The translations under genes were made by a program, and so were the position numbers. From assembly GCA_019057375.1 (NCBI GenBank), contig DXJF01000089.1, positions 1 through 40,323 on the forward strand: a stretch of 40,323 nt of DNA. The letters run 5' to 3'. Each line of letters begins with the position of its first letter. Positions within the stretch are counted from its first letter, which is position 1. This document shows, piece after piece, positions 4,116 to 36,186 of this stretch. The notes under the pieces are model-generated. The model did not search any database, had not been told where the DNA came from, and worked only from the letters and a program-made list of their open reading frames with translations. This DNA is from Candidatus Heimdallarchaeota archaeon. GTDB lineage: Archaea > Asgardarchaeota > Heimdallarchaeia > Heimdallarchaeales > Heimdallarchaeaceae.

Positions 4116-4119
4116 TCAT

Positions 4120-4125
4120 TCACCT
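4120..4125 (-). promoter_or_regulatory. Shine-Dalgarno-like AGGTGA upstream of the GTPase operon
   Basis: TCACCT on + at 4120-4125, 4 nt from the ATG at 4115; the same hexamer occurs at 5151-5156 before the uppP ATGs. Confidence 0.6.
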
Positions 4126-4317
4126 TTTTCTTTCAAATTTGGGAACTGGAATAGTACTGTTTTGAACAATTCTAATATAGTTTTTTCTATTTTAATGTTT
4201 TCGCTAACTGTAACATCTAGTAACTATTAATTAACGCTTATTCAATCAGAGTTATTTAAACATTCACATAGTAAAACCAGCCTAAAGCACATTAGATGGT
4301 ATTTGGGGAAAATTATA

Positions 4318-14552: not shown

Positions 14553-15436
14553 ATGTATGCACCTCTCAATCTCTTCTTTCTAATTATAAATCGAATAAAT
14601 AACACTAAATTAACAGGCAAAAGAAAATATATACAATAACTAAAAATAAAACTTGCAGCAGTTCTTTTTAGATCATCAACTTTGAATATCAACCCAACTT
14701 CATTTGCATTTAGGAATTCAAGTTCCCAATTCCAAATATAGAGTTTATAGAATGTCTTTTTCATAATTTCTAATCTATCGTATTCAAAATTGCTAGTTAC
14801 TCTATCTGGTTGAGTTCCTCTGACCTTAAATTCTATTCTCTCATTTAGTGTATTAGACCATGCTTTTGCAGTACCTACATCATACTTTACTGCAGTAAAA
14901 TCATCTGTAGTTTTGAATGTGGAAGACCAACGATACTCAATTTTTGTTGTTGTATCTTCTTCAAATGATATATTTGAAATAATAAAAATCCTCATTTCTT
15001 CGTCAAGGTAATCCTCCCATTCTGTTGGTTCTAGATAACCTGTTTCATAAAGATTATATGAAGCTTCTATTCCGTTGACTTCAACTTCTATAGTTTCTTC
15101 AAGACCATCGAAAACAGAAGAAAAAGGATTAGCAATCGTATAATAAGCTGTTGCTTCGTTATTATGGACATAATAGATGCCATTAAAATCGACTTTCAGA
15201 TTTGCTGTATATCCTGTTTGGATTTCGAAATTTACAATTGCTTGATCCATCCTAAGAGTATTAGAGACGTTTTCAGGTAAAATTCCACCTGCTAGATAAT
15301 TAGTCCAAGTATCAGGGTCAATAATAACAGGATTAGAGTATGTTGGTTGACAAATCTGTTGAAATGCAATCAGCATGAATAAACTAACAAATAAAATCAA
15401 TAGATACTTTTTCTTTGTTGAAGCAAATACAAGCAC
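14549..15436 (-). CDS. Membrane-anchored exported hypothetical protein, possibly DUF4424-like
   Basis: N-terminal signal/TM and C-terminal TM plus basic tail; YDVGTAKAW loosely resembles the DUF4424 motif; ATGA overlap with the solute-binding protein gene. Confidence 0.6.
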   Translation of the reverse strand: MLVFASTKKKYLLILFVSLFMLIAFQQICQPTYSNPVIIDPDTWTNYLAGGILPENVSNTLRMDQAIVNFEIQTGYTANLKVDFNGIYYVHNNEATAYYTIANPFSSVFDGLEETIEVEVNGIEASYNLYETGYLEPTEWEDYLDEEMRIFIISNISFEEDTTTKIEYRWSSTFKTTDDFTAVKYDVGTAKAWSNTLNERIEFKVRGTQPDRVTSNFEYDRLEIMKKTFYKLYIWNWELEFLNANEVGLIFKVDDLKRTAASFIFSYCIYFLLPVNLVLFIRFIIRKKRLRGAYI

Positions 15437-15613
15437 CTTTAATCTTACTACGATACTCTTCTCTCTTTAAAACGTTTGTTGCGGCATTTTAATCATTAGA
15501 ATTAGAGTAAAGAGAACTGATTTTTCCATCTAAAATTGCTTAATAGGAAAATCTAGTATATTTTAAAATTAAGAATGATTTTTTCTGTAGAATATAGGTC
15601 AATGCTTAGTAAT

Positions 15614-16912: not shown

Positions 16913-17908
16913 TTGAGTAGTGAGAGTGGCATAAAAAAAATAGAATATCAATGCAATAAATGCCAGAAGCAACGAAACTTAAACATCCCTTCCAGATTAT
17001 TACAAACGGATACACTATCAGCTATCTTAGAATTTGTTGATGTTCACAAATGTGATCAAGATAATCTATCAGCTGTTAAATGTTTTATAGACAGTTCTCT
17101 AACCGTTAGATCACAAGCTCACATAAAATCGACACATTATGGATATGAGACTGACCGAGATTTTTCATCGGTTCCTGATGAAAATGAAATGTATAAATCC
17201 CTTGGCATACCTATCCCCCAAAAAGTTGCTATGACAAAGAAAGTATTTGAAGCTCCTAACTTTGAAAGAATTAATATTACCGGTCTTGAGATAAAAGATA
17301 AAATTCGAAATACTACTTATGTTTTTGAGAAGAGCGAAGAGGGCAAGAAATTTACCATTAAATCAATCTTAGGATTCATTGAATTTCAAGTTTTTATTTC
17401 TGAAAAGGTTACAAATAGAATATTTAGGGAGTGGAAACAACAGTTAAAATCTACCCATGATTCGAGAAAGAAATCTTTTCCATTTACTGGAACTAGAAAG
17501 TGGATTCAACATGCTACAAACATCCTTGAAACCTCAGTTTTTCTCGACGAAGTTGTTTTGAAATTAATTGCTGAATTCATTGATGAAAATATCATTGAGG
17601 AACCTACAGAGAGAAATTTAGTAGAATTGGATCTGTTAGTTAATTCTACAATAGCCTTCCCTAAATCTTCATCTGATGAGTTTAGAAGATTTAATACTGA
17701 ACAAGCTATTCTTTTTAGTGAAATGAGCCCTAATCTAAGAATTCTCTGTAAAGATCTTATGGCATATTTCCTAACTAATCATGAAAAATCAATACTATAT
17801 TCATATAAAGAAATGAATCCAAATCAAAGTTTTAACAAATTTCTTTTTGTGATGAGTCATTTGGTTTATGAACGATTTTTAAAAATCAATAAATTAGAAT
17901 TTGTTTAG
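16913..17908 (+). CDS. Hypothetical protein with N-terminal CxxC...HxC putative Zn-binding domain
   Basis: YQCNKCQ...DVHKCD...CFIDSSLTVR; the same pattern ends the GTPase at 23848-25098. TTG start. Confidence 0.65.
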   Translation: MSSESGIKKIEYQCNKCQKQRNLNIPSRLLQTDTLSAILEFVDVHKCDQDNLSAVKCFIDSSLTVRSQAHIKSTHYGYETDRDFSSVPDENEMYKSLGIPIPQKVAMTKKVFEAPNFERINITGLEIKDKIRNTTYVFEKSEEGKKFTIKSILGFIEFQVFISEKVTNRIFREWKQQLKSTHDSRKKSFPFTGTRKWIQHATNILETSVFLDEVVLKLIAEFIDENIIEEPTERNLVELDLLVNSTIAFPKSSSDEFRRFNTEQAILFSEMSPNLRILCKDLMAYFLTNHEKSILYSYKEMNPNQSFNKFLFVMSHLVYERFLKINKLEFV

Positions 17909-22062: not shown

Positions 22063-23580
22063 TTAGAATTCATCTAGCACATTGAGTACGCATTGCCATC
22101 CTGATAAAATTGTAGATGAATAACCACCACCTGGGAAGGTCCAAGCTGATGTGAAATATAAATTCCTGATCGAAGATTTGACTTTAAAGCGTTTCATTCC
22201 AGCTTGACTTCTGGTTTGAGCAAAACCAATGGAGGTTCCGTTAGGATTTAGTGTATTATTCTTTTTAGTAAGAGGAGTAGATATATTTACATACTCAATG
22301 TAATTTTTTACACCAGGAATAAGAGTATCCAAGCGATTCATAAAGATATTTGTTATTTCTTGTTTCTTGTAAGTATATTCATCCTCGGTTAAACCTTCCC
22401 AATTCTCCAAATAATCTATTACACAAATAGTTCCTGTAGTTTTTCCAAGAGGTGTCAATCCTGAATCAATTTGTCCATAATCAATGAAAATATAATTTCT
22501 GTTCGAGTAATCCTGTTTGTTATTAGCTTCAAGATCAGCAAGAGAGTTTATTCCCTCAACATTAACAACTGTAGTATAGCTATTATGTCCTAAATCTTTT
22601 AAAGATTTATTGAAACATAGATAGATATTCAGAGTAGAATGACCAACCTCCAATTTGTTTACTTTATCCTTAAGAGACCGAGCATGTTTATCTGAAATTA
22701 ACTCATTTATCGCATAAGGTACAGCTGCGTTAACAATAACAAATTTCCCAATTACTTGAACTGGTTCCAAATTTTCTCTTTCTTTATTTTCATATTCAAC
22801 ACCGTAAGCTCTATTACCTTTTACAAGAATCTTTGTTACTCTTCTGTTGAATAATATATCTCCACCTTTTTCTTTGATGAAATCTGCTAGATGATTTGAT
22901 AGCCTTACAGATCCCCCTTTTATATAATGCGTTCCTCCTTTGAATCTTGAAGAAAGAGCAAGAGCAAAAATAATTGCAGATAACTTGTATGGATCATCGC
23001 TATAATATTGCAAAGTTCCAGCTAAAGCAAGTTTCAAATCTTCATTCTCAAATATCGAATCTAGAAGGTCTCCTGCCGTCTTTCCCCCCCATTTAGGTAT
23101 ACTTGAGTATAGAATAGGTACTAGGGGACCAATAAGAGCTTGTTTTACTTTAGATGTTGGAATACTATGAGTATCTTCTGTTAAATCAGATAAAGTTTTG
23201 AAGAATTTCTCAAGGTTACTCTTCTCTGTAGGATAAAGCTCGGAAAGTGTAGAAATTGCATCTTCTACTTTGTCTGGTATATTAAAATCAACTCTGCTAT
23301 TCTTATAACGATAGTAGCCTGTTGTAATTTTAACAAACTCGATATTGAAAACAACATCCAATTCTTCAAATATTTTGATTTTTGGATCTAACTCATAAAG
23401 ACCATCCATGGAGTGAAGACTTAAGTCTACTTGGTAATCACCTCTGATATAACCTGCTGCGTAACCGCCAGAGGTAATATGTTGTTCCAAAATCAACACT
23501 TTCTTACTTTCTTTAGCTAATTTAGCACCTGCTACTAAACCAGCTAATCCTGAACCAACAATAATTGCATCATAATCCAT
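22063..23580 (-). CDS. Phytoene desaturase (CrtI)/retinol saturase-like FAD-dependent oxidoreductase, paralog 2
   Basis: IVGSGLAGL, EQHITSGG, YIKGGS, STPLT...NPNGTSIG, LYFTSAWTFPGGG; collinear with 17915-19360. Confidence 0.87.
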   Translation of the reverse strand: MDYDAIIVGSGLAGLVAGAKLAKESKKVLILEQHITSGGYAAGYIRGDYQVDLSLHSMDGLYELDPKIKIFEELDVVFNIEFVKITTGYYRYKNSRVDFNIPDKVEDAISTLSELYPTEKSNLEKFFKTLSDLTEDTHSIPTSKVKQALIGPLVPILYSSIPKWGGKTAGDLLDSIFENEDLKLALAGTLQYYSDDPYKLSAIIFALALSSRFKGGTHYIKGGSVRLSNHLADFIKEKGGDILFNRRVTKILVKGNRAYGVEYENKERENLEPVQVIGKFVIVNAAVPYAINELISDKHARSLKDKVNKLEVGHSTLNIYLCFNKSLKDLGHNSYTTVVNVEGINSLADLEANNKQDYSNRNYIFIDYGQIDSGLTPLGKTTGTICVIDYLENWEGLTEDEYTYKKQEITNIFMNRLDTLIPGVKNYIEYVNISTPLTKKNNTLNPNGTSIGFAQTRSQAGMKRFKVKSSIRNLYFTSAWTFPGGGYSSTILSGWQCVLNVLDEF

Positions 23581-23847: not shown

Positions 23848-25098
23848 ATGAAAGAAAACGTGAAGCTTATGTATGCAGGAGAGAATAAATTAGAGTCTAA
23901 AATCGTAGTACTAGGGTTATCCCAATCTGGAAAGACTTCCATTCGACAAGTTGTTTTCGAAGGTTTTTCACCTGAAGCAACATCTATGAATCCAGCAACT
24001 GTACGTATCAACAGAAAACTGTTCAACCTTGCAGGGAGTGCCATAAACTTGTTCGATGTTGGTGGTCAATCTAATTATTTGAATGAAGTTTTTGAGCAAT
24101 ATAAAGAAAGAACTTTCAGTGACACCAAAGCTTTCATTTTCGTAGTTGATATATCCGATGCATCCAACATTATGAGATCCAAGTATTATTTCGATCTAAC
24201 TATGGAAAATGCAGTCAAATTAGCTGAAGGATCTAAAATTTATGTTTTTGCACATAAGATGGATGTTGTTGCACCCAATAAACGAGAACCTGTTTTACTA
24301 TCTATTAAGGATATTTTTGAGATAGACGATTTCCCAAATGCAGAATTGTTAGGTACTTCAATCTTTGAAGAAACAATCTGGGATGCAATGCAGCAAGTAT
24401 TAGCCTATGTTTATCCAAAAGATGACAAAAAATCTGTTAAAATAAAAGAAACTTTCAGCAAGCAAGATTTAGCATTTCTTTCTCTTTCAACAGCTCAAGG
24501 ACTAATGTTATATTCTCAACCTGAAAGATATACAGGCTTCAATTTTGTTAAACTTAAGAACGATTTAGCGAAGATGTTTTCTCAAACCTTGGTGCTGGAG
24601 TATGCTACTTTCTCTTTTGATGAAAGCCGAGTTTACATGAGGGAGATTGATGCAGATTTAATTTTAACAACTGTTTTTCCACCTAATTTAGATGTAGATA
24701 GAGAAATAGAGTATTTTAACACACTGGCTTCAGAAATGAAGCAATTATTCCAAACTGATGAACTAATTGGTCGTGCTAGAATCAAGATGAAAGGAGCTTT
24801 AGAAGATTATCTCCTAAAGAATGGAATTGAGAAATCAGATCTACTCGAAAGAAGGATTGAACAAAATATTAATTACAGATGCGATGTTTGTGGAAGAAAC
24901 CTCCAGAAATCCATTATAGATGTAGCTGTAGAGAGTGCTGAACAGTTAGAAAGAGGAATAAAAATCCAAAAAGGTTTTGGAGCGATATCAGTTGAACTAT
25001 TCCCATCACATGAATGCGTTGAAGGGATAAGAGAAGTACCTATCTTCCTTGATGGTCAATTAGAATATCGCCGTTATGATGATAGCAGACCTGTATAA
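23848..25098 (+). CDS. Rag/Gtr-like GTPase with roadblock/longin-like middle domain and C-terminal CxxC...HxC domain
   Basis: GLSQSGKTSIRQVVF, PAT switch I, FDVGGQSNYLNEVF, Rag-type G4 HKMD, G5 TSIF; FLSLSTAQGLMLYS...LILTTVF; CDVC...HEC. Confidence 0.85.
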   Translation: MKENVKLMYAGENKLESKIVVLGLSQSGKTSIRQVVFEGFSPEATSMNPATVRINRKLFNLAGSAINLFDVGGQSNYLNEVFEQYKERTFSDTKAFIFVVDISDASNIMRSKYYFDLTMENAVKLAEGSKIYVFAHKMDVVAPNKREPVLLSIKDIFEIDDFPNAELLGTSIFEETIWDAMQQVLAYVYPKDDKKSVKIKETFSKQDLAFLSLSTAQGLMLYSQPERYTGFNFVKLKNDLAKMFSQTLVLEYATFSFDESRVYMREIDADLILTTVFPPNLDVDREIEYFNTLASEMKQLFQTDELIGRARIKMKGALEDYLLKNGIEKSDLLERRIEQNINYRCDVCGRNLQKSIIDVAVESAEQLERGIKIQKGFGAISVELFPSHECVEGIREVPIFLDGQLEYRRYDDSRPV

Positions 25099-25117
25099 AT
25101 ATAATTTCAAAAGAAGT

Positions 25118-27178
25118 TTAATCAGTAGTTTCTATTTCTTCTTTAATTTCTTCCTTTTTCTTAGCTGATCCACTGAATAGGAAAGCTGACAAGCTCTTAA
25201 TATCGTCCATCTTTATTTCCATATCTTCTAATTTGAAATTTTCATCTAAAATAGTTTCTTTCTTCTGAACTAGAAAACTAGCGAAGTCTTGAATATCAAC
25301 TGCGGAAAAATTTATAGAAGTATCAGTTGCACTAACTTCTTCTTGAACTGGTTCAGGAGAAGATTCTTTCATGACGACTACAGGTTCTGGTTCAGGAACA
25401 GTTTCTTCAGCAACTTCTGTTTCTGAAATAGCGTCTTGAATAATGACTTCTTCGACAACTTTTACAACTTGTGGAACTGGTGGAGCTATTGATTCCGAGG
25501 ATTCTTCGATTTTTACTTCCCTTTCTTCAACTATATCTGAAAATTGTTGTTTTAATTTCATATCTAATGATTCAGGTGAGGGAACAAGTTTTTCTTCTTT
25601 AACGATTTCCACCTTTTCAACTACTGGAGGTTCAGGCAGTTCTATAGCTTCCTCAAGTTTTTCAGGAACAGGAGGATATTCTTCAACATCTTCTTTAATA
25701 GCTTCCATAATTTCAGAGATTGGTTCTGGTTCAGGAACTTCTACAGGAGCAGAAACAATTTCTTCTGGTTCTATGGCAACCTTAGTTATCACAATTTTTT
25801 CCTTCTGGAAGAATGATTCGTCTTCTATTTGAACTGGTTCAGCTTCAACAACTGGAATCTCTTCAAAAACCTCAACGTCTTCTGCTGTGCTGGTTGGTTG
25901 AGAGACAACTTTGTCTACTAAGTCATCTACTTCTAATTCAGTTGATGGAACAACTTCAGTTACTTTTAGTGGTTCTTTCACAACTTCTGTTACAACAGGT
26001 TCAGGTTCAGGAACAATTTCTTCAGCTGGCTCGATAACTACTGTTGTTGTAGGTTCTGTCACTACCTGTTCTGTAGGTTCAGGTGGACTAACTCCTGCTG
26101 ATGATTGAGCAAATTTAAAGATCAACTGAAAGAGAAGCTCTTTTCTTTCCTCAGAAATTGGGGAAAAAGAGGTAATTATGAGATAGTTGTTTGCTAAATC
26201 GAACAACATGGCATGAACTTTACCGCTGTCAGAAGTTAGAATATCACCAGAAGGATCAATTTCTTCAGTATTATCTTTAATTCTAGATTTGAAATCGTGC
26301 AAAGCTACCAGATATTCCATAGAATTATCTGCAGAAACAGATGCATTGGAAGAAGCACCTGTAATAGGGGAATGAGTTTTCTTATCAATAAGAACTATTT
26401 CAATGATATCATAGTCTGTTAAATCAAGTTGAAAATTGAGTTTTCCAAAAGTAGGTAATAGAGGTGTTGGTTCAGGATTTAGATAATCTCTCAAAATTGC
26501 GACTTTTTCATCCTCAGCATGTTCCAAAACATAACTTTGGAATTCTTCGCTCTCTTCGACTTTTTGTCCAACATTGGAAACTAACTCAAATCTTTTTGTA
26601 TTTATTCCAGCTTCTGCCATTATAGTAAAAAGTAGTTCTCTTAAGCTATCTTTATAGTAAATACTAGTATTTTCAAAGTCAACTTCGAATCTTGTATCAG
26701 CAAACATCTCTCGAACGTGCTGGTGAATTACAACCATCTGATCAGGAGTAACTAAATCCACTTTATGGCATAAAACAGTGATATTTCCTTCAGGATTTTC
26801 TTTTTTGAATTGACGTATAGTAAAACTGAAACGCCTTTCAGACTCTTCAAATAATTCAGGTTTAGTGACATCAACAATCCATATTAACAGTTTTACATTG
26901 GAAAAAACAAGATGACGAAAATGAGTAACAGCTTCATTCCAATACGATTCTTGTCCACCAGAATCAATAATCATACTTGTTTGGTCTTCATCTAAGAATT
27001 GTCTTTGATAATGTACAGTAGCCATGTATCCGTAGACTTCCTCTGGTTCTTTATTGAAGAAGACAACATCTTTTATAGCAGTTTTTCCTGCAGCTTGAAG
27101 ACCCATTAGTATAATTTTGTCTTCAACCTCAGTTACACTTCCTTTCTTGCCAGATAATTCGTCGAAGAGATAGGACAC
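25118..27178 (-). CDS. Rag/Gtr-like GTPase with roadblock-like domain and a long acidic E/P/V-rich tail
   Basis: MGLQAAGKTAIKDVVF, MAT, IDSGGQESYW, VFSNVKLLIWIVD, G4 HKVD, TSIY; EIVLIDKKTHSPIT...YLIITSF; then a low-complexity tail. GTG start. Confidence 0.85.
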   Translation of the reverse strand: MSYLFDELSGKKGSVTEVEDKIILMGLQAAGKTAIKDVVFFNKEPEEVYGYMATVHYQRQFLDEDQTSMIIDSGGQESYWNEAVTHFRHLVFSNVKLLIWIVDVTKPELFEESERRFSFTIRQFKKENPEGNITVLCHKVDLVTPDQMVVIHQHVREMFADTRFEVDFENTSIYYKDSLRELLFTIMAEAGINTKRFELVSNVGQKVEESEEFQSYVLEHAEDEKVAILRDYLNPEPTPLLPTFGKLNFQLDLTDYDIIEIVLIDKKTHSPITGASSNASVSADNSMEYLVALHDFKSRIKDNTEEIDPSGDILTSDSGKVHAMLFDLANNYLIITSFSPISEERKELLFQLIFKFAQSSAGVSPPEPTEQVVTEPTTTVVIEPAEEIVPEPEPVVTEVVKEPLKVTEVVPSTELEVDDLVDKVVSQPTSTAEDVEVFEEIPVVEAEPVQIEDESFFQKEKIVITKVAIEPEEIVSAPVEVPEPEPISEIMEAIKEDVEEYPPVPEKLEEAIELPEPPVVEKVEIVKEEKLVPSPESLDMKLKQQFSDIVEEREVKIEESSESIAPPVPQVVKVVEEVIIQDAISETEVAEETVPEPEPVVVMKESSPEPVQEEVSATDTSINFSAVDIQDFASFLVQKKETILDENFKLEDMEIKMDDIKSLSAFLFSGSAKKKEEIKEEIETTD
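25300..26090 (-). repeat. Low-complexity Glu/Pro/Val-rich coding region with recurring EPEPV / EPEEI / PEP motifs
   Basis: Translation such as EPAEEIVPEPEPVVTE, EVPEPEPISE, VPEPEPVVV; on the + strand GGTTC(A/T)GG recurs. Confidence 0.75.
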
Positions 27179-27287
27179 GAGTTTTTTCCCCTTGTTATAA
27201 CTATTAAATAGTATCTATAAGTAATAAACAGAAAAATTGCATATCAACATATCGTTATTGGTCATGGGAAATTAGGAAGAGGAGGGA

Positions 27288-30200
27288 TTAATCTCCATTT
27301 TGTAACTTTTCCATTTCTTGTGCAGCAAGCATAATAATTACAGATTGTTTTCGAATATCAACTATAATATCTTCAACAACTTTGAGATTTTTCTTAGATT
27401 TCAAATCATCAATTAGATCATCAACATTCCCATAAAGATATTCTTGATAGTTAAGTAGTAAATTACCATACTCAGAATCTGCTAGAACAATAAGAGAAAG
27501 ATTTTCGAACCCTCCTCTAGCCATTTTATTTTCTAGCTGAACACCATGAACAAAAGCTACCATCTTCTCTGTTGGAAGAATAATTGACCCTACTCTTCTA
27601 CCTGCATCATGTTCCTCAAAACCAAGTGAGCTATATGCTTGATCAGCTATTTTAAGAAGGAAATTTTCAACGCCAATTCTCATCCTATTGATATATCGCC
27701 CAATATCTAAACTATGGTCAGAAACTAATGGAATCGGTCCTTTTCTCTGATCGAAAATCGTTAGAATGACTCCTGGTGACATAATCGAATAATTTAATGC
27801 TATATCTTCGTCTGTAACTCTTTCCATCAATTCTTCAAATGATTTAGGTCGAGTAACTTTATAAATTATGAAAGATATCAGAGCAGCTACTCCTATGCTT
27901 CCACCAATGATTAGATAAAGTAACCATCGAGGGAATTTTGTTGCTTCAGGTGGTGGAAATGTTATGACTATATCCTCCACATCAAAAGTAATGGAATCCA
28001 TTGTAGGAGTTTCATTGAAACCAGCAGATATTCGTATATAGTCAATATTTGATTCAAGTACATATGAAATTGAAGCTATCCCTTCTTCATTAGTGAAATA
28101 AGAATCAAAGAATGTATCGTTATAATCAGTGAATTGGAACTTAACTAAAGAAGGAGAATCTACACTGTCATTCTTCCAATAGATGAAAATGTAGAAATGA
28201 ATTTCTGCTAAGGAAATTGGTGTTCCATCCGTTAGTGTAAGATTCGCATAAATCGTTACCGCGGTTCCTTCTAGAATCGTAGAATTGGAAACCCAGACAT
28301 TAAAGAGTATTGGAATAGGCTTTATTTCAAAATCAAAAGCTGTTGTAGAAGTTGTATTAGCAAAATAGAATAAAGATTCAACACAAATTATAAGCGAGAA
28401 ATTTCCCTTACTATTTAATGGTATAGAAGAATAAATAAAAGTACAGATTGAAGTAATCGAATCAAAAGTGAAATCAAATGAAGTCTCATTAACAAATAAT
28501 TTAGTAATTGTTGTCTTTTGTCCTAGATTATTTTCAAGATACAAGGATATTTGGAGGTCTTCTCCGTATATGACACTAGAATCACTTTCCTCCAAGATAG
28601 TAGAATTACCTTCTTTCTTCAGAATTGTGAGATAGAGTCTTGTAGATGTTCCTCCACCAGTTGGTCTTGAAAATTGAATAAATACCTGAGTTTCTTTTAT
28701 GAAAGAAACATTTGTTGCATGAACTTCAATCTCATAAATACTAGTAGTGTTAGTTACTTTGACTGTCAAATTTAGTGATACATCTTGTATTACGGTATAG
28801 TAAAGGTCATCTATTTGATATAGGCTTGAGTTCAATACTTCAACTTGGTAAACAAAAGTGTCATTATATGTCAACACATGGTGATAGTCATTTGTGAAAT
28901 TTGCAGGGAATATAAAATTGAGTTTAATATCACTTACCCTGAATATATATATATGAGTTACATTGTTTGTTGAATGACTCCAAGTATTGTCAACGAATGT
29001 TATTGTTAAATTATGATCTCCATCTGTTAGAGGTACAGAGCTAAAATAAAATGGGGGGTCAGAAATAGTGTTTAACTCTCCTGAATCCCAATTATAAGAG
29101 ATATAATCAATATCAGAATCTAAAGTTTTGTTAAACCACAGAGTAGTATTCCCTTGTACATTTATTATTGTATTAGGTTCAATATATTCTAGATGCAGAC
29201 TTGTTTCATTATAGAAGTAAATATCACCAATTGGTGGGGCAAAATCTATTTCAAAAGTGTAATTATACAATGCAAGATTTCCTAGTATATCACTTGCTTC
29301 AATAGTAACTGTGGCAAACTCACCTGTAGCATAGAGTGGTGATAATAATCCAAGATTTGTAACAAAGTCAAAAGAAGGATAAGACCAAAAACCTGGTAGA
29401 GCATCCCAGAAATATCTAATGCTATTAATTGTAGCTTCATTTTCATCGTTTGAATCAAAAGACAATAGTGAATATTCATTAACTTTAGTCAGATTTGTAG
29501 GATCTGTGAGATCAGCATTAGGGGCTAGGCTGTCAATTATTAAGTTGTAAGATATCATTCTTTCATTTCCCAACGTGTCATTAGCATAGATTTTTACAAC
29601 TAATGGTCCATCAGAATCACTCAATATGATACTGTCGGTGAAGGGAATTTTTAGTCCGCCATAGATTCTATAATAACTGTAAGTTGTTTCATCATCATCA
29701 GTTATAGTTACTTGAACCAAAGCATCAGCTGGAACATACAAATTTCCATCAACTAAACTATAATCCACCAATTCAGGAATTGTGATGGTTAGATCTGGTT
29801 CTGTTGTATCTATGGTGAATCTTATGTTCTGATAAGCTATGTTTCCAGCTAAATCTCGAACTCTTAAATCCAAAGTATGAAAACCATCTGCATATGGTAA
29901 AAGAGAGAAAACAAAATCATAAAATAAGTTCTTGAAAATTTTTCCATCAATTGAATATTCAATTACTAGGGTTGTATTATCAGTAATGAAATTATCTTCT
30001 ACACAGATAAAAAAATTCGCATTACTAAGATATCGTGAATTATTGTAACTTTGAAAATTACTTATAACGGGTGCAGTTCTATCAACTATGAATGTGAAAT
30101 TAAAGATATGTTGATCATCTGTTAAATTGAAAGTTCTTATTGTTAACTTATTGGTTCCTTCAATTATAGGTATTGTATCTTCACCACTTAGAACCAGTGA

Positions 30201-32057
30201 GGTAGTAGTTAAAGATTCATAGGTTTCGTCACCAGAATTCCAGCTGTAATAACAGTTAGTATTACTCCTTTGTATTATTAATTCAACATCATTTCCACCT
30301 TGAACATACTGCCCATCATTTAAATTGACTAAATCTACGTTGAAAAAAGTGTCATCTGCCCAAAATTCAAAATAAGAATATGAAATATGATTAAAAACAT
30401 CTTCTACATATACTTTTAATATTCTTTTACCTATACTAATTGGTAAATCAGTTGTGTAAACATTACTTGGTACTTCTGTCCAGCTCTGATTTGCTCCAGA
30501 ATCCCAACTATAGTTTAAATAGCTAAATGTTGAGCTATCAGTAATTTTCAATTCTATATTCTTACCTGGAACATAGAAACTCTCATTTACAACATTATAG
30601 AGAGAGATAATTGGAGTATCTGAATCAAATTCAAAAATATAGAAATAAGATTTAGTCTCATAGAAATCTGATGTTGTTAGATTTAAATCGTGCCATCCAT
30701 TGAACATATCCGTAACTAAATCATAAGGAGATAGTAGTGGAAATTGCGTTCCACTTGAATCCCACTCATACATAACTGTACTAACATTGAAAATGCTGAA
30801 ATCTAGTATAAATCCACCTTCTAACCTATCTGAACTCACCGCATTATTCAGAATAAGATTTTCAGCTGATGCATCATAACCTAGTTTATACATTGTAGTG
30901 TTTGTATTTCCAAAATCTGGATCACTTGCATTGATCTCCAGATAATGCCACCCATGTATATCAGGAATTTGTGTAGTAGTATTATCTGAGAAGGGATTCC
31001 ATGTACCTCCATCCCATCTATACGAACTGACTGACCCTAGAGTCACATCAATTGCTACATTCTGTTGAGTACCATAAACTGTTTCGTTTGTGACACCATA
31101 AACATCAATATCAGGAAATTCTTTCGAACGTAAATATAGTTGAACTCCCGTCATTCTTTGATTATTATCTAAAGTATAAGTATTCCCATAAGTAGGATCA
31201 CTGATAGTCCAAATAAGAGTACCACTGATTCCACCAGCTGGATATCCTGTGTACATTAATAATGAATAACTAGATGGAATTGTGTCGTACATATATTCTA
31301 TGTCATATTTTAATCTATATCCTGCAGGAATTGTATAGGTGCCTGTTATCTCAGAAGAAAATGTTCTCTGTGTTAGAGTTGTATTAACAGGTACGTTAGT
31401 GGTAGTAGAAGTCAATTCAACAGATGATTTATCTGCAGGGTTAAATAAATGCACACTAAATTTCATTGTTATCGCGATGTAATCAGAGAAATATACCCCA
31501 TCATTTGTTCTGATATAAGTTAAATAATACACTCTTCCGCTAATTTCCCAATCTTCAGTAAAGACTGGACTGAACATTTTTGAAGGCTCAGAAGGAAAAT
31601 TTCTCTCCCTTAAGTGATGCCATTCTCCTGCAGAGCTAGGATGAGTAATTGGGTCAGTACTTATAGATCTCCAATAGAGCTCTTTAGGTATGTGTCCTCC
31701 ATCTTTAACTTCATCATAAGTAACCCATTCTATAACATTAGGATAGTAAGCTGTATCATTATTGTCTGGTTCATTTGGATATTCTGGCTCATCTATCAAG
31801 TCGTTTCCTGCTTCCGTTCCTCCCCCGCTGAAGAATGCGAATGTTTGGAAATCTCCTGGAATCAAATCTTTTTTTATCAAAAATGAATCATCTTTCAGAT
31901 AATAATCACTATCGAGATTTGAATCATCTTGTGGAACTAGCTCATTAATTGGATTATTATTACTCAGGTCTACATCCTGGATTTCATAATAAATTATTGA
32001 ATTAAAACATAATACAATTAGAAGGATTGACATTAAAGATGATTCTTTTCTTTTCAT
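27288..32057 (-). CDS. 1589-aa receptor-like surface protein: signal peptide, tandem Ig-like repeats, single TM helix, cytoplasmic uDENN/longin-like domain
   Basis: N-terminal hydrophobic ILLIVLCFNSII; many N-x-S/T sequons; repeats of Y-x-W-D/N...G-x-H-x-L-x-I-x-A-x-D; TM WLLYLIIGGSIGVAALISFIIY (about 27861-27926); cytoplasmic GVILTIFDQRKGPIPL...ARGGFENLSLIVL. Confidence 0.8.
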   Translation of the reverse strand: MKRKESSLMSILLIVLCFNSIIYYEIQDVDLSNNNPINELVPQDDSNLDSDYYLKDDSFLIKKDLIPGDFQTFAFFSGGGTEAGNDLIDEPEYPNEPDNNDTAYYPNVIEWVTYDEVKDGGHIPKELYWRSISTDPITHPSSAGEWHHLRERNFPSEPSKMFSPVFTEDWEISGRVYYLTYIRTNDGVYFSDYIAITMKFSVHLFNPADKSSVELTSTTTNVPVNTTLTQRTFSSEITGTYTIPAGYRLKYDIEYMYDTIPSSYSLLMYTGYPAGGISGTLIWTISDPTYGNTYTLDNNQRMTGVQLYLRSKEFPDIDVYGVTNETVYGTQQNVAIDVTLGSVSSYRWDGGTWNPFSDNTTTQIPDIHGWHYLEINASDPDFGNTNTTMYKLGYDASAENLILNNAVSSDRLEGGFILDFSIFNVSTVMYEWDSSGTQFPLLSPYDLVTDMFNGWHDLNLTTSDFYETKSYFYIFEFDSDTPIISLYNVVNESFYVPGKNIELKITDSSTFSYLNYSWDSGANQSWTEVPSNVYTTDLPISIGKRILKVYVEDVFNHISYSYFEFWADDTFFNVDLVNLNDGQYVQGGNDVELIIQRSNTNCYYSWNSGDETYESLTTTSLVLSGEDTIPIIEGTNKLTIRTFNLTDDQHIFNFTFIVDRTAPVISNFQSYNNSRYLSNANFFICVEDNFITDNTTLVIEYSIDGKIFKNLFYDFVFSLLPYADGFHTLDLRVRDLAGNIAYQNIRFTIDTTEPDLTITIPELVDYSLVDGNLYVPADALVQVTITDDDETTYSYYRIYGGLKIPFTDSIILSDSDGPLVVKIYANDTLGNERMISYNLIIDSLAPNADLTDPTNLTKVNEYSLLSFDSNDENEATINSIRYFWDALPGFWSYPSFDFVTNLGLLSPLYATGEFATVTIEASDILGNLALYNYTFEIDFAPPIGDIYFYNETSLHLEYIEPNTIINVQGNTTLWFNKTLDSDIDYISYNWDSGELNTISDPPFYFSSVPLTDGDHNLTITFVDNTWSHSTNNVTHIYIFRVSDIKLNFIFPANFTNDYHHVLTYNDTFVYQVEVLNSSLYQIDDLYYTVIQDVSLNLTVKVTNTTSIYEIEVHATNVSFIKETQVFIQFSRPTGGGTSTRLYLTILKKEGNSTILEESDSSVIYGEDLQISLYLENNLGQKTTITKLFVNETSFDFTFDSITSICTFIYSSIPLNSKGNFSLIICVESLFYFANTTSTTAFDFEIKPIPILFNVWVSNSTILEGTAVTIYANLTLTDGTPISLAEIHFYIFIYWKNDSVDSPSLVKFQFTDYNDTFFDSYFTNEEGIASISYVLESNIDYIRISAGFNETPTMDSITFDVEDIVITFPPPEATKFPRWLLYLIIGGSIGVAALISFIIYKVTRPKSFEELMERVTDEDIALNYSIMSPGVILTIFDQRKGPIPLVSDHSLDIGRYINRMRIGVENFLLKIADQAYSSLGFEEHDAGRRVGSIILPTEKMVAFVHGVQLENKMARGGFENLSLIVLADSEYGNLLLNYQEYLYGNVDDLIDDLKSKKNLKVVEDIIVDIRKQSVIIMLAAQEMEKLQNGD
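28945..31120 (-). repeat. About eight degenerate tandem Ig-like repeats (~85-95 aa each) in the surface protein
   Basis: Cores: YRWDGG..GWHYLEINASD; YEWDSS..GWHDLNLTTSD; YSWDSG..GKRILKVYVED; YSWNSG..GTNKLTIRTFN; YSIDG..GFHTLDLRVRDLAGN; YRIYGG..GPLVVKIYANDTLGN; YFWDA..VTIEASDILGN; YNWDSG..GDHNLTITFVD. Confidence 0.75.
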
Positions 32058-32059
32058 TT

Positions 32060-32842
32060 CTACTTCCTCAATTCATTTTCTATATTGCTTATTTTTCCTA
32101 AATTTTGAGTTTCTAAACTCAGGTTTTCACTTATTATTTGTCTAATATCAAAGGATCTAAAGAAGCAATCAGTTATTTCTTCTTGGAATTCTGGAATTCC
32201 TTCTTGTGTCATATTTGATATTTTAATTGGAATGATTCTATCTAGATCAATATTAACCCCAATTCTCTCTTCAACATGGTTTGAGATGAATTTTCTACCT
32301 GCTTCTATTTCTTCTTCTTTAACAATTATTGTATCTTCTTGATCTAGATGTGTGCCTAATAAAACAATATTTGTATATTCTTTTATTAGCTCTTGTTCAA
32401 TAGCTCTATTCAGCCAGTATTCAAGATTTTGGAAAGTAGTTATGTTGTTAAGATTATAAGTTAGAACTAACACAATAACCTCATTTATAGACCTAATATC
32501 AAAGTATAAGTCTAAAGCATCTTCAAAAGCTAACCCTGTTCCTTTTTCAGCTTTTCCTTTTTGTCCAGGCATAATGAAAAGTTGAGAACTAATAGTAACC
32601 CTAAATTTTTCAATATTCGAATGAGCAATGAAATATTCAAACTCTAGATTAATAGATTTAGAAATTGTTTGACATCGTGCATTTATAAAACCTCCCTGCC
32701 TAAAACTAGACAAATTCAATGCTGCGTGCGTTTTTCCAGTATGACCATCACCTATGAAAACCACTCCACCTGTACATGTTATATCAGATTCATTACATCG
32801 AATAAGACGTTGAATTTCGTATTTTGGTTTCATAGACAACAA
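32060..32842 (-). CDS. Divergent small GTPase (Rab/Roc-like)
   Basis: G1 GDGHTGKT, G3 position FIMPGQ (no Asp), VLVLTYN, G4 LLGTHLD, G5 ISNMTQEGI. Confidence 0.72.
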   Translation of the reverse strand: MLSMKPKYEIQRLIRCNESDITCTGGVVFIGDGHTGKTHAALNLSSFRQGGFINARCQTISKSINLEFEYFIAHSNIEKFRVTISSQLFIMPGQKGKAEKGTGLAFEDALDLYFDIRSINEVIVLVLTYNLNNITTFQNLEYWLNRAIEQELIKEYTNIVLLGTHLDQEDTIIVKEEEIEAGRKFISNHVEERIGVNIDLDRIIPIKISNMTQEGIPEFQEEITDCFFRSFDIRQIISENLSLETQNLGKISNIENELRK

Positions 32843-32933: not shown

Positions 32934-34088
32934 TTACTTTAGTTTTTCAATTTTTCCAAAATCCCTCTCCAAAGAGAGTTCCTCTAGGATTCTATCATCT
33001 GATGGGGATGTTTTTTCCATTACCATCCTTGCAAGTAATTCTCCTAAACCTGGACCTAGCATAAATCCTTGACCACACATCCCTACTGCATTGATATATC
33101 CTTCAAGATAAGTTACTTTGCCTACAATTGGAGAGCCATCAGGTGTCATGGGGTAAAGTCCTCTCCAGGTTCTTCTCATTTTCAAGTGTTTTGTCCTGGG
33201 TATAAGACCAATAAGCCTTTGTGAGACTTGCGGTAGAAAGGCTGATGTTTCATTTTCATTTATTCCAGGTATAATTGGTTCTGGTGTAAGGCATAGAATA
33301 AACTTGCCTTCTATATTTTGGTAGAAATAGAAGTTTTTGGTTCCTTCACCAGGTCTTAAATCTACAACTAGAGGATAAATGAATTTCTGAACAGGCTCAC
33401 TGATACCAGATTCGTGTGAGTCTGGAAATATTGGTAAATTGAGTCCAACCATTTCACCTATTTGTTTAGCTGAAGCTCCAGCTGCATTAATAATAAAATC
33501 TGTTTCATACGCACTCTTATTTGTAATAACTTTCTTAATAGGTCCATTCTTGAGTTCAACATTTGTCACAGATTCCTTAAAGAAATATTCAGCTCCAGTA
33601 GTAAGAGATTGTTTTTGAATGGCATAAAGAGTTTTTAGTGGAGAAGAGTTTCCATCTTCAGGAGAATACGTTCCCCCTAGAAGACCCTCTTTGCTGATTC
33701 CTGGTACTAACTCAATGATTTTCTCTTTATCTACCCAATTAATGTTTAGTCCTGATTCTTTTTGGATGACCAGATTTTCTTTCATGAGTTGTTCATGAGC
33801 TTCATTATATGCAACAAATGTATAACCACCTTGGAACCATTCTATATCATGACCGTGTCTGACCTCCCAATTAGAGAGGATATCTATTGAATCTTGACAT
33901 AAGATTATTTTTGAAGGATTGGTATGAGTGGCTCTTATTCCTCCAATAGCTTTCTTGTTCTGACCTTGGCCTGCTGAAGGAAGTGATTCTATAACTGCAA
34001 CCTTCAACCCTTCTCTAGACATTGCATAAGCTGCTGGAACACCTACACTACCTGCACCAATAATTATGACATCGTATCTCTTAGTCAT
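32934..34088 (-). CDS. DAO-family FAD oxidoreductase (sarcosine oxidase beta / dye-linked proline dehydrogenase beta-like)
   Basis: IIGAGSVG, INAAGA, RTWRGLYPMTPDGSPIVG, GMCGQGFMLGPGLG. Confidence 0.88.
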   Translation of the reverse strand: MTKRYDVIIIGAGSVGVPAAYAMSREGLKVAVIESLPSAGQGQNKKAIGGIRATHTNPSKIILCQDSIDILSNWEVRHGHDIEWFQGGYTFVAYNEAHEQLMKENLVIQKESGLNINWVDKEKIIELVPGISKEGLLGGTYSPEDGNSSPLKTLYAIQKQSLTTGAEYFFKESVTNVELKNGPIKKVITNKSAYETDFIINAAGASAKQIGEMVGLNLPIFPDSHESGISEPVQKFIYPLVVDLRPGEGTKNFYFYQNIEGKFILCLTPEPIIPGINENETSAFLPQVSQRLIGLIPRTKHLKMRRTWRGLYPMTPDGSPIVGKVTYLEGYINAVGMCGQGFMLGPGLGELLARMVMEKTSPSDDRILEELSLERDFGKIEKLK

Positions 34089-34092
34089 ATTA

Positions 34093-36186
34093 CTAATCCT
34101 CCTCCTGAGATCCAGTGAAATACTTCAAAGGTACTTCTATAAATAGAGGTCTTTGCACAAATGGTGTTATTTCATCGTAAGAAATACCTTCTTCTCTGAA
34201 CAGCTTCTCTATTAGTTTTGAACAAGTTTTAGCTCCACAAGCCCCCATTCCAACTTTTGATTTAGCTTTCAGTTCATTTGCATCAGTTATTCCCATTCTG
34301 ATTAAAGCTCTGATTTCTCCAGCTGTAATTCTTTCACATCTACAGATTATTGCTTCATCGGGGATTATATCCTGATACAACTCTATTTCCTTAAGTTCAT
34401 AGGCTTTAGGAATTTTGAATGATACTGCTTCCAAAGCAACTTCTTTGGGTAGTTTTACTGTAATAAGTTGAGTCTTAGAATATTTTTTCAAAATTCTAAC
34501 CATATCAACTTCATGAATTCCCAACTCCTCTCCATCTTCATTAACCACCATAAGTTTATCTCCCTCCTCTACTTTTTCAACAAAGATTTCTGTTGGAATT
34601 GTTACTTTAGGAAAATTTGAATCGTCTCTATAATCTAGAAGAGTAACTGCTAAGCCCGGACAAACTGCAACACATTGAGCACAGCCTATACATTCAACAT
34701 CTTGTTCTTTTTTAAATTCTGGTAAACCTAATATTCCACCTTCAGGAATAATAATGAGTTCTTTGGGACAAACTGAAGTACAGGGATTACAAGGTATTTC
34801 TTGATTACAATGAAAGACAGGATAAATTCCTTCTTCCCTGATAGGTTTCTCTATTTTTACAACTGGACCTGGATGACTTTTGAGAATTTCAGCTTTGTCT
34901 TCCCATTCAATTGGCACATCTTTTTTGGTAAGACTAAGAGATTGACCTATTTTCATACCTGCAATTTTACCACTGAACATTGCAGAGGAAGCTTCAGCAA
35001 TTTCTAGAGCATCTCCTGCTGCCCACACATCCATACCAAATTCCTTTGCTTTCATGTAAAACTCATTTACAGGATCTAAACCAATTGCAATAAGAATTGT
35101 ATCAACTTCGAATGTTCTTTCTGTTCCTTTAATCGGTTGAAATCTCTCATCTATTTGCGATATTGTAACAGCTTCAACATGATTTTTTCCATGTGTAGCT
35201 GTAACTGTATGTTGAGTATAAATTGGAACATCTAACCTTCGTAGCTTATCTTCATGAACTTTGTATCCCCCACACTTTGGAAGAGCTTCAACCAATCCTA
35301 CTACCTCAATACCTGCTTGAATGGCATGATATCCAGCGATAATTCCAACATTCCCTCCACCTATGATGAAAATCTTTTCGCTTGATTTAACTAAATCACG
35401 GTTCACTAATGTCTGAAAAGCTCCAGCTCCATAAACCCCTGGTAAAGTATTACCTGGAAAAGCAAGCATTTTTTCTCTCGCACCAGTTGCAACCAGGAGT
35501 TTCTTCGGATTAATGTGAACATACTTATCGCCCTTAAGTACTCCAACTAATTTATCTGAAAAAACAGCTATACAAGGACTATCTAACCAAACATCTATGT
35601 TTTCAAACTCTTTTATCTGTTCTTCGAGTATCTTAGCAATATCAATTCCTCGGGTCCCAGCGAATGAATCTTTAACAGACCCAAAAAACTTGTGAGTTTG
35701 TAGAAGAAGTTTACCACCAAGTCGATCTTTATCATCAATAAGAATGATTTTAGCTCCAAGTTTAGCTAAAGTCAGAGCTGCTTGCAATCCTGCTGGACCT
35801 GCACCAATTATGAGAACATCTGTATCTATTGTAGGAATTGGTTTGAACTCCACTTCTTCATCATCTTCTGGAAGAGGAGGATAATCTTCAACACTCTCAA
35901 TTTTTTGACTCTCTTTCAGAGGAGTCATACAAGATTTGAGAGCAATACCATCAACTAAAACTGTACACTGAGCACATTGACCATTTGCACAAAAAATTCC
36001 TAAAGGTGCTTTATCTTCAGGATGTTTCCCAAAAATCTGAATTCCGTTGGCAATAAGAGCTGAAGATATCATCTCCCCCTTTTTACCAAACAACTCTTTA
36101 TCATCAAAAGTAAATTTTACAAATACAGATTCTTCTTCTTGTAAAACGGGATGATTCTTGATTCTTTTTTGTTTATTGGAAAACAT
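34093..36186 (-). CDS. Fused sarcosine oxidase / proline dehydrogenase alpha-like subunit (2Fe-2S, FAD/NAD, 2x[4Fe-4S], BFD-like [2Fe-2S])
   Basis: CANGQCAQC, GAGPAG, ATGARE, GGGNVG, CNPCTSVCP, CIGCAQCVAVCP, ICRCE...GMGACGAKTC. Confidence 0.87.
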   Translation of the reverse strand: MFSNKQKRIKNHPVLQEEESVFVKFTFDDKELFGKKGEMISSALIANGIQIFGKHPEDKAPLGIFCANGQCAQCTVLVDGIALKSCMTPLKESQKIESVEDYPPLPEDDEEVEFKPIPTIDTDVLIIGAGPAGLQAALTLAKLGAKIILIDDKDRLGGKLLLQTHKFFGSVKDSFAGTRGIDIAKILEEQIKEFENIDVWLDSPCIAVFSDKLVGVLKGDKYVHINPKKLLVATGAREKMLAFPGNTLPGVYGAGAFQTLVNRDLVKSSEKIFIIGGGNVGIIAGYHAIQAGIEVVGLVEALPKCGGYKVHEDKLRRLDVPIYTQHTVTATHGKNHVEAVTISQIDERFQPIKGTERTFEVDTILIAIGLDPVNEFYMKAKEFGMDVWAAGDALEIAEASSAMFSGKIAGMKIGQSLSLTKKDVPIEWEDKAEILKSHPGPVVKIEKPIREEGIYPVFHCNQEIPCNPCTSVCPKELIIIPEGGILGLPEFKKEQDVECIGCAQCVAVCPGLAVTLLDYRDDSNFPKVTIPTEIFVEKVEEGDKLMVVNEDGEELGIHEVDMVRILKKYSKTQLITVKLPKEVALEAVSFKIPKAYELKEIELYQDIIPDEAIICRCERITAGEIRALIRMGITDANELKAKSKVGMGACGAKTCSKLIEKLFREEGISYDEITPFVQRPLFIEVPLKYFTGSQEED

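Follow-up and report, generated by a model that had tools for sequence, protein, structure and literature searches.

The window analysed in this report, that is, the whole stretch of 40,323 nucleotides (nt) at positions 1-40,323 of the forward strand of contig DXJF01000089.1 (Candidatus Heimdallarchaeota archaeon, assembly GCA_019057375.1), carries a cluster of four adjoining genes that encode a divergent small GTPase, a large surface protein and two Rag-like GTPases, which we call Ras260, BigTM, Rag686 and Rag416, respectively. The DNA itself is found in a marine sediment metagenome. In this report, we describe the cluster and its relatives in other Asgard archaea, and we argue that the cytoplasmic tail of BigTM has the predicted fold and the signature motifs of the longin domain of folliculin (FLCN) and may act on the neighbouring Rag-type GTPases at the cell membrane. 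According to the list of open reading frames (ORFs) of the window, the first three genes are read from the minus strand and Rag416 from the plus strand, as follows, with the evidence for each in brackets:

32060-32842, minus strand: Ras260, a divergent Ras-superfamily GTPase of 260 amino acids (ORF list, Pfam)
27288-32057, minus strand: BigTM, a type I membrane protein of 1589 amino acids (ORF list, hydropathy, sequons)
25118-27178, minus strand: Rag686, a Rag-like GTPase of 686 amino acids (ORF list, Pfam)
23848-25098, plus strand: Rag416, a Rag-like GTPase of 416 amino acids (ORF list, Pfam)

A spacer of only 2 nt separates the stop of Ras260 from the ATG of BigTM, and the sequence GAGGAAG stands just 5' of this ATG, a junction that fits translational coupling of the two genes. 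Between BigTM and Rag686 lies a T-rich spacer of 109 nt with TATA-like runs, and Rag686 is convergent with Rag416, their stops being 19 nt apart. This arrangement, both short spacers included, is exactly the one that a first-pass annotation of this DNA had described, provided that the 'head-on' meeting of the two Rag-like genes is read as tail-to-tail.

The surface protein and its longin tail

The following features were recognised in BigTM:

31983-32057, minus strand: N-terminal leader or signal peptide, residues 1-25 (hydrophobic window at residues 4-25)
27861-27926, minus strand: transmembrane (TM) helix WLLYLIIGGSIGVAALISFIIY, residues 1378-1399 (hydropathy)
27291-27860, minus strand: folliculin-type longin tail, residues 1400-1589, 190 amino acids (AlphaFold2, Foldseek, VIA, Pfam)
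27735-27740, minus strand: GP motif G1440-P1441 (tail G41-P42), within FDQRKGPIP at the start of strand b2 (alignment, AlphaFold2)
27510-27521, minus strand: ARGG motif in the b4-b5 loop (alignment, AlphaFold2, the stretch matching Pfam Folliculin)
27516-27518, minus strand: codon of R1514 (tail R115), candidate arginine finger (invariant in 30 members)

Because BigTM has a leader, a single TM helix, N-x-S/T sequons that lie mostly N-terminal of this helix (38, versus 2 on its other side) and a basic KVTRPK stretch immediately past it, we assign it a type I topology. Its sequon-rich ectodomain of ~1350 amino acids had been described as an Ig array, which is partly shown: one Pfam Big_13 match exceeds its cut-off (29.7 bits versus 27) and a [YF]xW[DN] motif recurs at residues 346, 430, 516 and 604, with a period of ~86 amino acids, but a PKD match stays below cut-off, and the Ig-like repeats are better called a putative array with one domain above cut-off. 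Across 14 orthologues, the mean identity to BigTM is 36% in the ectodomain versus 66% in the tail, as would suit a signalling module that stays constant while the sensor joined to it varies.

The tail was modelled with AlphaFold2 (AF2) from a 30-row alignment, giving a predicted local distance difference test (pLDDT) of 92.7 and a predicted template modelling score (pTM) of 0.89. The modelled topology is helix-b1-b2-a1-b3-b4-b5-a2-a3, with strands (E) and helices (H) at tail positions E30-37, E41-49, H54-79, E90-95, E100-110, E118-128, H132-154 and H159-187. This corresponds to the definition of the longin fold, a five-stranded antiparallel sheet in the order b1-b2-a1-b3-b4-b5 followed by two C-terminal helices, and an additional N-terminal helix (tail 8-27) stands ahead of the longin core. 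Longin domains occupy the top of both independent fold searches. Foldseek placed the Lokiarchaeota longin 8yqg at the head of its list (7e-7), next FLCN in its active GTPase-activating protein (GAP) complex (8dhb_J, 1.5e-4, 25% identity), and then GATOR1 (NPRL) subunits, FNIP2 and Lst4. VIA likewise gave the highest score to 8yqg (Z 13.0, root-mean-square deviation (rmsd) 3.1, 142 residues aligned), with FLCN (6nzd_H, Z 11.5, rmsd 2.7, 136 aligned), Lst4 (Z 11.5) and C9orf72-SMCR8 (Z 11.4 and 10.1) following, and SNARE, TRAPP, adaptor and roadblock domains at Z ~8 or lower. The GATOR1 and C9orf72-SMCR8 structures among the top fold matches are 9v0j, 8fw5, 8adl, 7o2w and 6lt0. In Pfam, Folliculin (PF11704) is the sole recurrent family for the tail, matched by 19 of the 30 members, all below threshold. 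Thus, the first-pass annotation had both the position of the cytoplasmic domain and its longin kind right, and AF2, Foldseek and VIA specify it further as a folliculin/NPRL2/SMCR8-type longin.

Two motifs stand out in the alignment of the 30 family members, which extends down to 24% identity. In the consensus, the turn between b1 and b2 reads FDQ..GP.P and the b4-b5 loop ARGG.EN; F36, Q38, G41, P44, R115, G116, G117, E119 and N120 are invariant, and D37 and P42 are kept in at least 90% of the members. G41 and the A-R-G residues are also invariant in 17 diverse forms, whether TM-anchored, Rag-fused or DENN-fused. According to an earlier comparison, the GAP-type longins FLCN, NPRL2 and SMCR8 are marked by a GP motif before or at the start of b2 together with an arginine finger, marks that are absent from adaptor longins and from longins of the guanine nucleotide exchange factor (GEF) type and are both present in some soluble longins of Heimdallarchaeia (PMC12290439). 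With its GP on the first residues of E41-49, the tail agrees with the definition given there, and R115 sits in the one stretch that matches Pfam Folliculin. Arg164 of FLCN is the catalytic finger for RagC (PMC9473554), and a profile match to FLCN, non-significant at E 0.86, puts R115 ~2 residues from it, by count. We regard the longin fold of the tail and the presence of these two motifs as highly probable.

Co-folding of the cytoplasmic domain with the GTPases, which the first-pass annotation had proposed as a check, covered Rag416, chosen for having the G domain most similar to the lone G-domain gene found beside a paralogue of BigTM (see below). With the tail, the Rag416 G domain (residues 1-200), GTP and Mg as input, the interface score ipSAE was 0.34 (runs of 0.36, 0.34 and 0.24), versus 0.06 for the best of three controls; at least 93% of the contacts agreed among the runs, and the pLDDT of the partner was at least 86. 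Of 80 solved complexes, 58 reached the mark set for such co-folds, as did 2 of 110 mismatched pairs, and scores at or below 0.60 included only 7 of the 80 solved complexes along with both passing mismatches. The pass may also partly reflect likeness to folliculin-Rag, because complexes of that kind have already been solved. The co-fold accordingly scored lends weak support to a predicted binding of the tail to the Rag416 G domain.

The three GTPases of the cluster

Outside their G domains, the two Rag-like proteins have the following features:

26081-26611, minus strand: roadblock-type C-terminal domain of Rag686, residues 190-366 (AF2, Foldseek, VIA)
25316-26080, minus strand: P/E/V-rich linker of Rag686, ~250 amino acids (free length and sequence variation among orthologues)
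25244-25315, minus strand: conserved C-terminal motif of Rag686, INFSAVDIQDFASFLVQKKE (15-orthologue alignment)
24874-25095, plus strand: C-terminal Cys/His module of Rag416 (C345, C348, H388 and C390 invariant in a 13-orthologue alignment)

Both proteins are Rag-like, as the first-pass annotation had said, with Pfam Gtr1_RagA matches of 107.8 bits (7e-31) for Rag416 and 91.5 bits (7e-26) for Rag686 against a cut-off of 22. The P-loop, the DxGGQ motif with the switch II glutamine and the HKxD G4 motif are retained by both, as GLSQSGKT, DVGGQS and AHKMD in Rag416 and as GLQAAGKT, DSGGQE and CHKVD in Rag686. Their best sequence matches in the PDB are Gtr1/RagA and then RagC/Gtr2 (for Rag686, 1e-13 to Gtr1/RagA and 1e-11 to RagC); an assignment to RagA or to RagC was dropped, since both proteins score higher against Gtr1/RagA than against Gtr2/RagC. 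Folded by AF2 with 15 orthologues, residues 190-366 of Rag686 reached a pLDDT of 73.5, and the model was matched in Foldseek to SpGtr1/SpGtr2 (~6e-4), to the Ragulator roadblocks MP1/p14 and to RagA/C. Two Rag-like proteins of Lokiarchaeota with solved structures are also matched in their C-terminal domains. VIA gave Z 7.8 for LokiRagM, 7.5 for the RagC C-terminal domain and 7.1 for that of RagA. By this model, the C-terminal domain of Rag686 is of roadblock type, the Z scores being middling but consistent. For Rag416, a profile of 13 orthologues (71% mean column identity) aligns to yeast Gtr1 (3.7e-30) through position 231, within the Gtr1 C-terminal domain, and this alignment points to a Gtr1-like domain there as well. 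Adjacency of the two genes, and the AF2 heterodimer reported for a Rag pair in MK-D1 (PMC10933270), suggest that Rag416 and Rag686 probably pair through these domains.

At the far end of Rag686, the motif I.FSA.DI..FA.FLVQKKE is kept across the 15 orthologues, and the linker that precedes it is not; the motif has the look of a peptide or helix tethered for some partner. The Cys/His module of Rag416 ends in ...LEYRRY..SRP, and no family was recognised in it by Pfam. Whether this module recurs in the N-terminal part of the gene at 16913-17908 was also considered, and the 16-residue BLAST match between the two (E 0.16) did not establish it.

The first-pass annotation had called the small GTPase Roc-like, a designation that we replace. 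Ras260 scores 28.2 bits against Pfam Ras (cut-off 21.6) and 17.8 bits against Roc, below the cut-off of 27, and its 260 amino acids hold no COR or any further domain, so that a Roc-COR (ROCO) identity was rejected; the GTHLD G4 motif by itself is insufficient to call the protein Roc. Its motifs comprise a P-loop GDGHTGKT, a G3 of FIMPGQ that has no Asp, an inserted loop KGKAEKGTGLAFEDA, the G4 and a G5 of ISN, all of which are invariant in 15 orthologues (61% mean column identity), and the Atlas clusters nearest to it are Ras/Roc/Arf. Judged by these features, Ras260 is a divergent, atypical Ras-superfamily GTPase, and the ATG at 32833 is likely to be the truer start of its gene.

Conservation of the cluster and other forms of the tail

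Synteny across Asgard genomes, another check proposed for this cluster, shows conservation well outside the immediate relatives of the window. Within the genus, the order Ras260, BigTM (one to three copies), Rag686 and, convergent with it, Rag416 was found at every locus with enough sequence to judge. The same four genes stand together in three further genera of the family, one example being the complete Candidatus Heimdallarchaeum aukensis genome, and again in a second family, where the flanking genes are unrelated; in one genus, the order is rearranged and all four genes are still adjacent. The linkage of tail and Rag-like genes is thereby conserved across two families but is not universal. 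In the window, the cluster is flanked by three oxidoreductase-type genes (32934-36186 and 22063-23580, both minus strand), whose products are a FAD-dependent oxidoreductase (DAO), a 2Fe-2S/4Fe-4S pyridine-nucleotide-disulphide oxidoreductase and an amine-oxidase-like flavoprotein. Members of the genus retain these flanks and the second family does not, and for this reason the flanks are probably unrelated to the module.

Tandem duplicates of BigTM, two or three in a row with one Ras-like gene on one side and one Rag686 gene on the other, occur at four loci (L022, on contig C160 of a same-genus genome, L023, L024 and L028). The tails of the tandem copies are 65-80% identical and the whole proteins 37-51%, and one GTPase set may serve several receptors, or tails may form pairs with each other. 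In the genome of the window itself, a 36% identical, tail-bearing paralogue of the surface protein is encoded on contig C153 (L021, 6194-11512), directly downstream of a gene for a 180-amino-acid Gtr1_RagA protein that has no roadblock domain; relatives of this paralogue have a Gtr1_RagA gene of 180-198 amino acids upstream, downstream or divergent. A more distant relative of 2321 amino acids from another family (L157, 6967-13932, minus strand), with a tail 26-29% identical, lies between two Gtr1_RagA genes whose products have Rag-like lengths of 319 amino acids (5950-6909, plus strand) and 369 amino acids (14442-15551, plus strand). A canonical Ras-family gene is nearby (3649-4317, minus strand), and the arrangement as a whole echoes the cluster of the window.

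Searching 1.84 billion representatives with the tail returned 56 relatives; those that are near full length have the match at the C-terminal end of a large protein, many of the others are short fragments, and public annotation calls these relatives 'hypothetical'. Another genus of the class has up to 13 copies of the tail domain per genome, on proteins of up to 10,431 amino acids, an open frame of this size being found, for example, on contig C193. Loci of this tail-rich genus (L074-L085) frequently show a tandem of a giant protein, a ~1550-amino-acid protein and a ~1000-amino-acid protein, next to a lysyl-tRNA synthetase gene.

Other forms also occur. L152, a distant soluble relative, is a longin-DENN protein with a weak DENN match. 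In other Asgard families, proteins of ~472 amino acids carry an N-terminal folliculin-type longin fused to a Gtr1_RagA G domain (2e-24); the fused longin matches the tail with an hhalign probability of 94% (E 1.3e-7) and retains both GP and ARG. The fusions, found as weak matches to the tail profile, are:

L153, 5476-6906, minus strand: longin-Rag fusion
L154, 6227-7642, plus strand: longin-Rag fusion
L155, 6247-7665, plus strand: longin-Rag fusion
L156, 6282-7700, plus strand: longin-Rag fusion

These four proteins possibly have a C-terminal domain too, and a second Rag-like gene of 320 amino acids lies ~4 kb from the fusion in L153, L155 and L156.

A candidate receptor-GAP and its alternatives

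The reading that we put forward, and to which we give a somewhat better than even chance, is that the cluster is a conserved four-gene module of Heimdallarchaeia in which a surface protein with a folliculin-type longin tail serves as a membrane-anchored receptor-GAP for Rag-type GTPases. Positioned on the inside of the cell membrane, the tail would engage the neighbouring Rag-type GTPases by their G domain, and these GTPases would probably be paired through their roadblock C-terminal domains like Gtr1-Gtr2 and RagA-RagC, and the invariant R1514, with the invariant GP motif, would stimulate GTP hydrolysis. The tail would at the same time supply a membrane address for unlipidated GTPases, and Ras260, probably coupled to the receptor gene in translation, would be a third switch in the circuit; the logic would be that of a plexin-like, membrane-anchored receptor-GAP. 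The parts of this proposal differ in strength. That the tail is a functional partner of the neighbouring Rag-type GTPases we consider quite probable, and GAP chemistry that depends on the arginine seems to us slightly less probable than its absence; we infer the effect of any ligand and the outside-in direction of signalling.

Folliculin-FNIP1/2 is a longin-DENN GAP for RagC/D (Gtr2), GATOR1 acts on RagA/B (Gtr1) and C9orf72-SMCR8 acts on Arf/Rab. The tail resembles folliculin-FNIP1/2 (yeast Lst7-Lst4; PDB 8dhb, 6nzd, 6ulg, 4zy8) in its longin fold (VIA Z 11.5, Foldseek 1.5e-4, 18-25% identity), in the GP at strand b2 and an invariant Arg of the b4-b5 loop that is a likely counterpart of Arg164, and in its association with Rag-family GTPases. 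Unlike folliculin, a soluble, lysosome-recruited complex, the longin here is the C-terminal tail of a 1589-amino-acid type I surface protein; it has no DENN domain, its locus has no FNIP-like partner, and its Pfam Folliculin match is below threshold. With GATOR1 (NPRL2-NPRL3-DEPDC5; yeast SEACIT) and C9orf72-SMCR8 the tail shares a GAP-type longin with a GP motif and a candidate arginine finger, but these are soluble complexes of several subunits built on longin heterodimers, whereas BigTM has one longin, which its TM helix tethers. Plexins, receptors of animals that carry a Rap-GAP domain in their own cytoplasmic part, offer a general analogy only: BigTM is like them in joining a large ectodomain of Ig/IPT type through one TM helix to a cytoplasmic domain predicted to be a GAP for small GTPases. 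The GAP folds are unrelated (RasGAP-like versus longin), and plexins also differ in lineage and in target GTPase.

Part of this picture is already known in Asgard archaea. Soluble folliculin/SMCR8-type longin proteins (PMC12290439), FLCN-like longin-DENN and NPRL2-like longins (bioRxiv 10.1101/2020.10.19.343400) and longin-Rag GTPase fusions (PMC10933270) have been reported, and in MK-D1 the GTPases generally lie outside operons with roadblock or longin genes (PMC10933270). The same paper remarks that Asgard GTPases are seldom placed beside their regulators in the genome. The tail has the same longin type and both motifs, and the longin-DENN protein and the longin-Rag fusions described above are distant homologues of it; unlike the soluble longins, the tail form is membrane-anchored and clustered with a Rag pair. 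Neither the membrane-anchored form nor the conserved Rag-pair cluster was found in the literature searched, though the 15 Asgard longins of PMC12290439 may include tails of this family. The first-pass annotation had called the system undescribed, and this holds, as far as the literature searched goes, for the TM-anchored architecture and the Rag cluster, but not for folliculin-type longins with GP and Arg in Heimdallarchaeia, Rag-like GTPases or longin-GTPase fusions.

Several observations weigh against a receptor-GAP. At 18.0 bits the tail of the window falls short of the Pfam Folliculin gathering score of 23.3 (best member, E 1.3e-4); in searches of PDB sequences, the tail-family profile (A1) found no match, the single tail sequence found a chance match only, a further profile (A6) reached FLCN at a non-significant E of 0.86-0.95, and a trimmed one (A7) lost it. 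Because the profile matches to folliculin are non-significant, it is chiefly structure and motifs that speak for homology to FLCN. R1514 is no more than a likely counterpart of FLCN Arg164, and the closest solved structure, 8yqg, which is the longin of a Lokiarchaeota roadblock-longin protein, keeps the GP and has no arginine at the ARG position, so not every Asgard longin of this shape can be GAP-like. BigTM ends 190 residues past the TM helix and its model is a single longin, leaving no DENN domain, and no second longin partner gene lies in the window; the three eukaryotic longin GAPs all function as longin heterodimers. At the level of linkage, the spacer upstream of Rag686 may hold a promoter of its own, several paralogue loci have no GTPase neighbour, and none was found by BLAST and Pfam in any of 12 sampled loci of the tail-rich genus.

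Some of these points would be accommodated if the tail were a membrane anchor or scaffold that recruits the Rag dimer as Ragulator does at the lysosome, or a GEF, like the majority of longin/DENN platforms, with the arginine and the GP motif serving binding. Longin and roadblock domains widely serve GTPases as platforms, and MglB, TRAPP, Mon1-Ccz1, DENN and Ragulator are among the fold matches; the want of a DENN domain and of a second longin at the locus agrees with such a role, and as Asgard small GTPases have no lipidation signals (PMC10933270), a TM anchor would answer a real need. The two marks kept in the tail are, however, specific to GAP-type longins (PMC12290439), and its best fold matches are GAP-type longins and not TRAPP or Mon1, which leaves a scaffold or GEF unlikely in our view, if a serious competitor. 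Still less likely, we think, is an inside-out arrangement in which BigTM is mainly an adhesin or envelope component, and the GTPases control, via the tail, its clustering, sorting or deployment on protrusions. A large, repeat-rich, sequon-heavy and fast-evolving ectodomain would suit such a role, as would the giant relatives, which look more adhesin-like than receptor-like, the two- to threefold tandem duplication of the receptor gene by a single GTPase set and the many tail-bearing genes that lack a GTPase neighbour; the catalytic-type motifs argue instead that the tail acts on a GTPase, beyond merely being bound. Finally, the cluster might be inherited synteny with no functional coupling, given that most of the compared genomes are close kin, that the wider synteny with the FAD/Fe-S oxidoreductase genes is kept in the genus and that GTPase genes are simply abundant, with 22 Gtr1_RagA model matches in the genome of the window. 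This we regard as very improbable: the cluster is intact in the second family with other flanks and after rearrangement, Rag-like neighbours recur in two further tail-bearing lineages, longin and Rag G domain are fused in other Asgards, and, with ~1 such GTPase gene per 158 kb, chance is unlikely to bring about the repeated adjacency, on a rough estimate from lineages that are not fully independent.

Returning to the receptor-GAP, its GTPase partners bear on a published question, since the GTPase targets of Asgard folliculin-type longins were posed as open in PMC12290439. The module offers a concrete, conserved regulator-GTPase pairing in four small expressible parts, the tail and the three GTPases. 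If our reading is true, the relationship between Rag GTPases and longin GAPs pre-dates eukaryotes and was wired to a surface protein of the cell membrane, which would bear on the origins of lysosomal nutrient signalling and of membrane identity. A bolder version, speculative and in our estimate rather doubtful, is that the folliculin/GATOR1-Rag axis is older than eukaryotes and operates at the cell surface in Heimdallarchaeia, where ligand, contact or oligomerisation at the giant, hypervariable ectodomain would gate a longin GAP that sets the nucleotide state of a Rag heterodimer, with several receptors, differing in their ectodomains, converging on one GTPase module, and that the lysosomal nutrient switch descends from it. 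The module is in this sense a candidate forerunner of the eukaryotic Rag switch.

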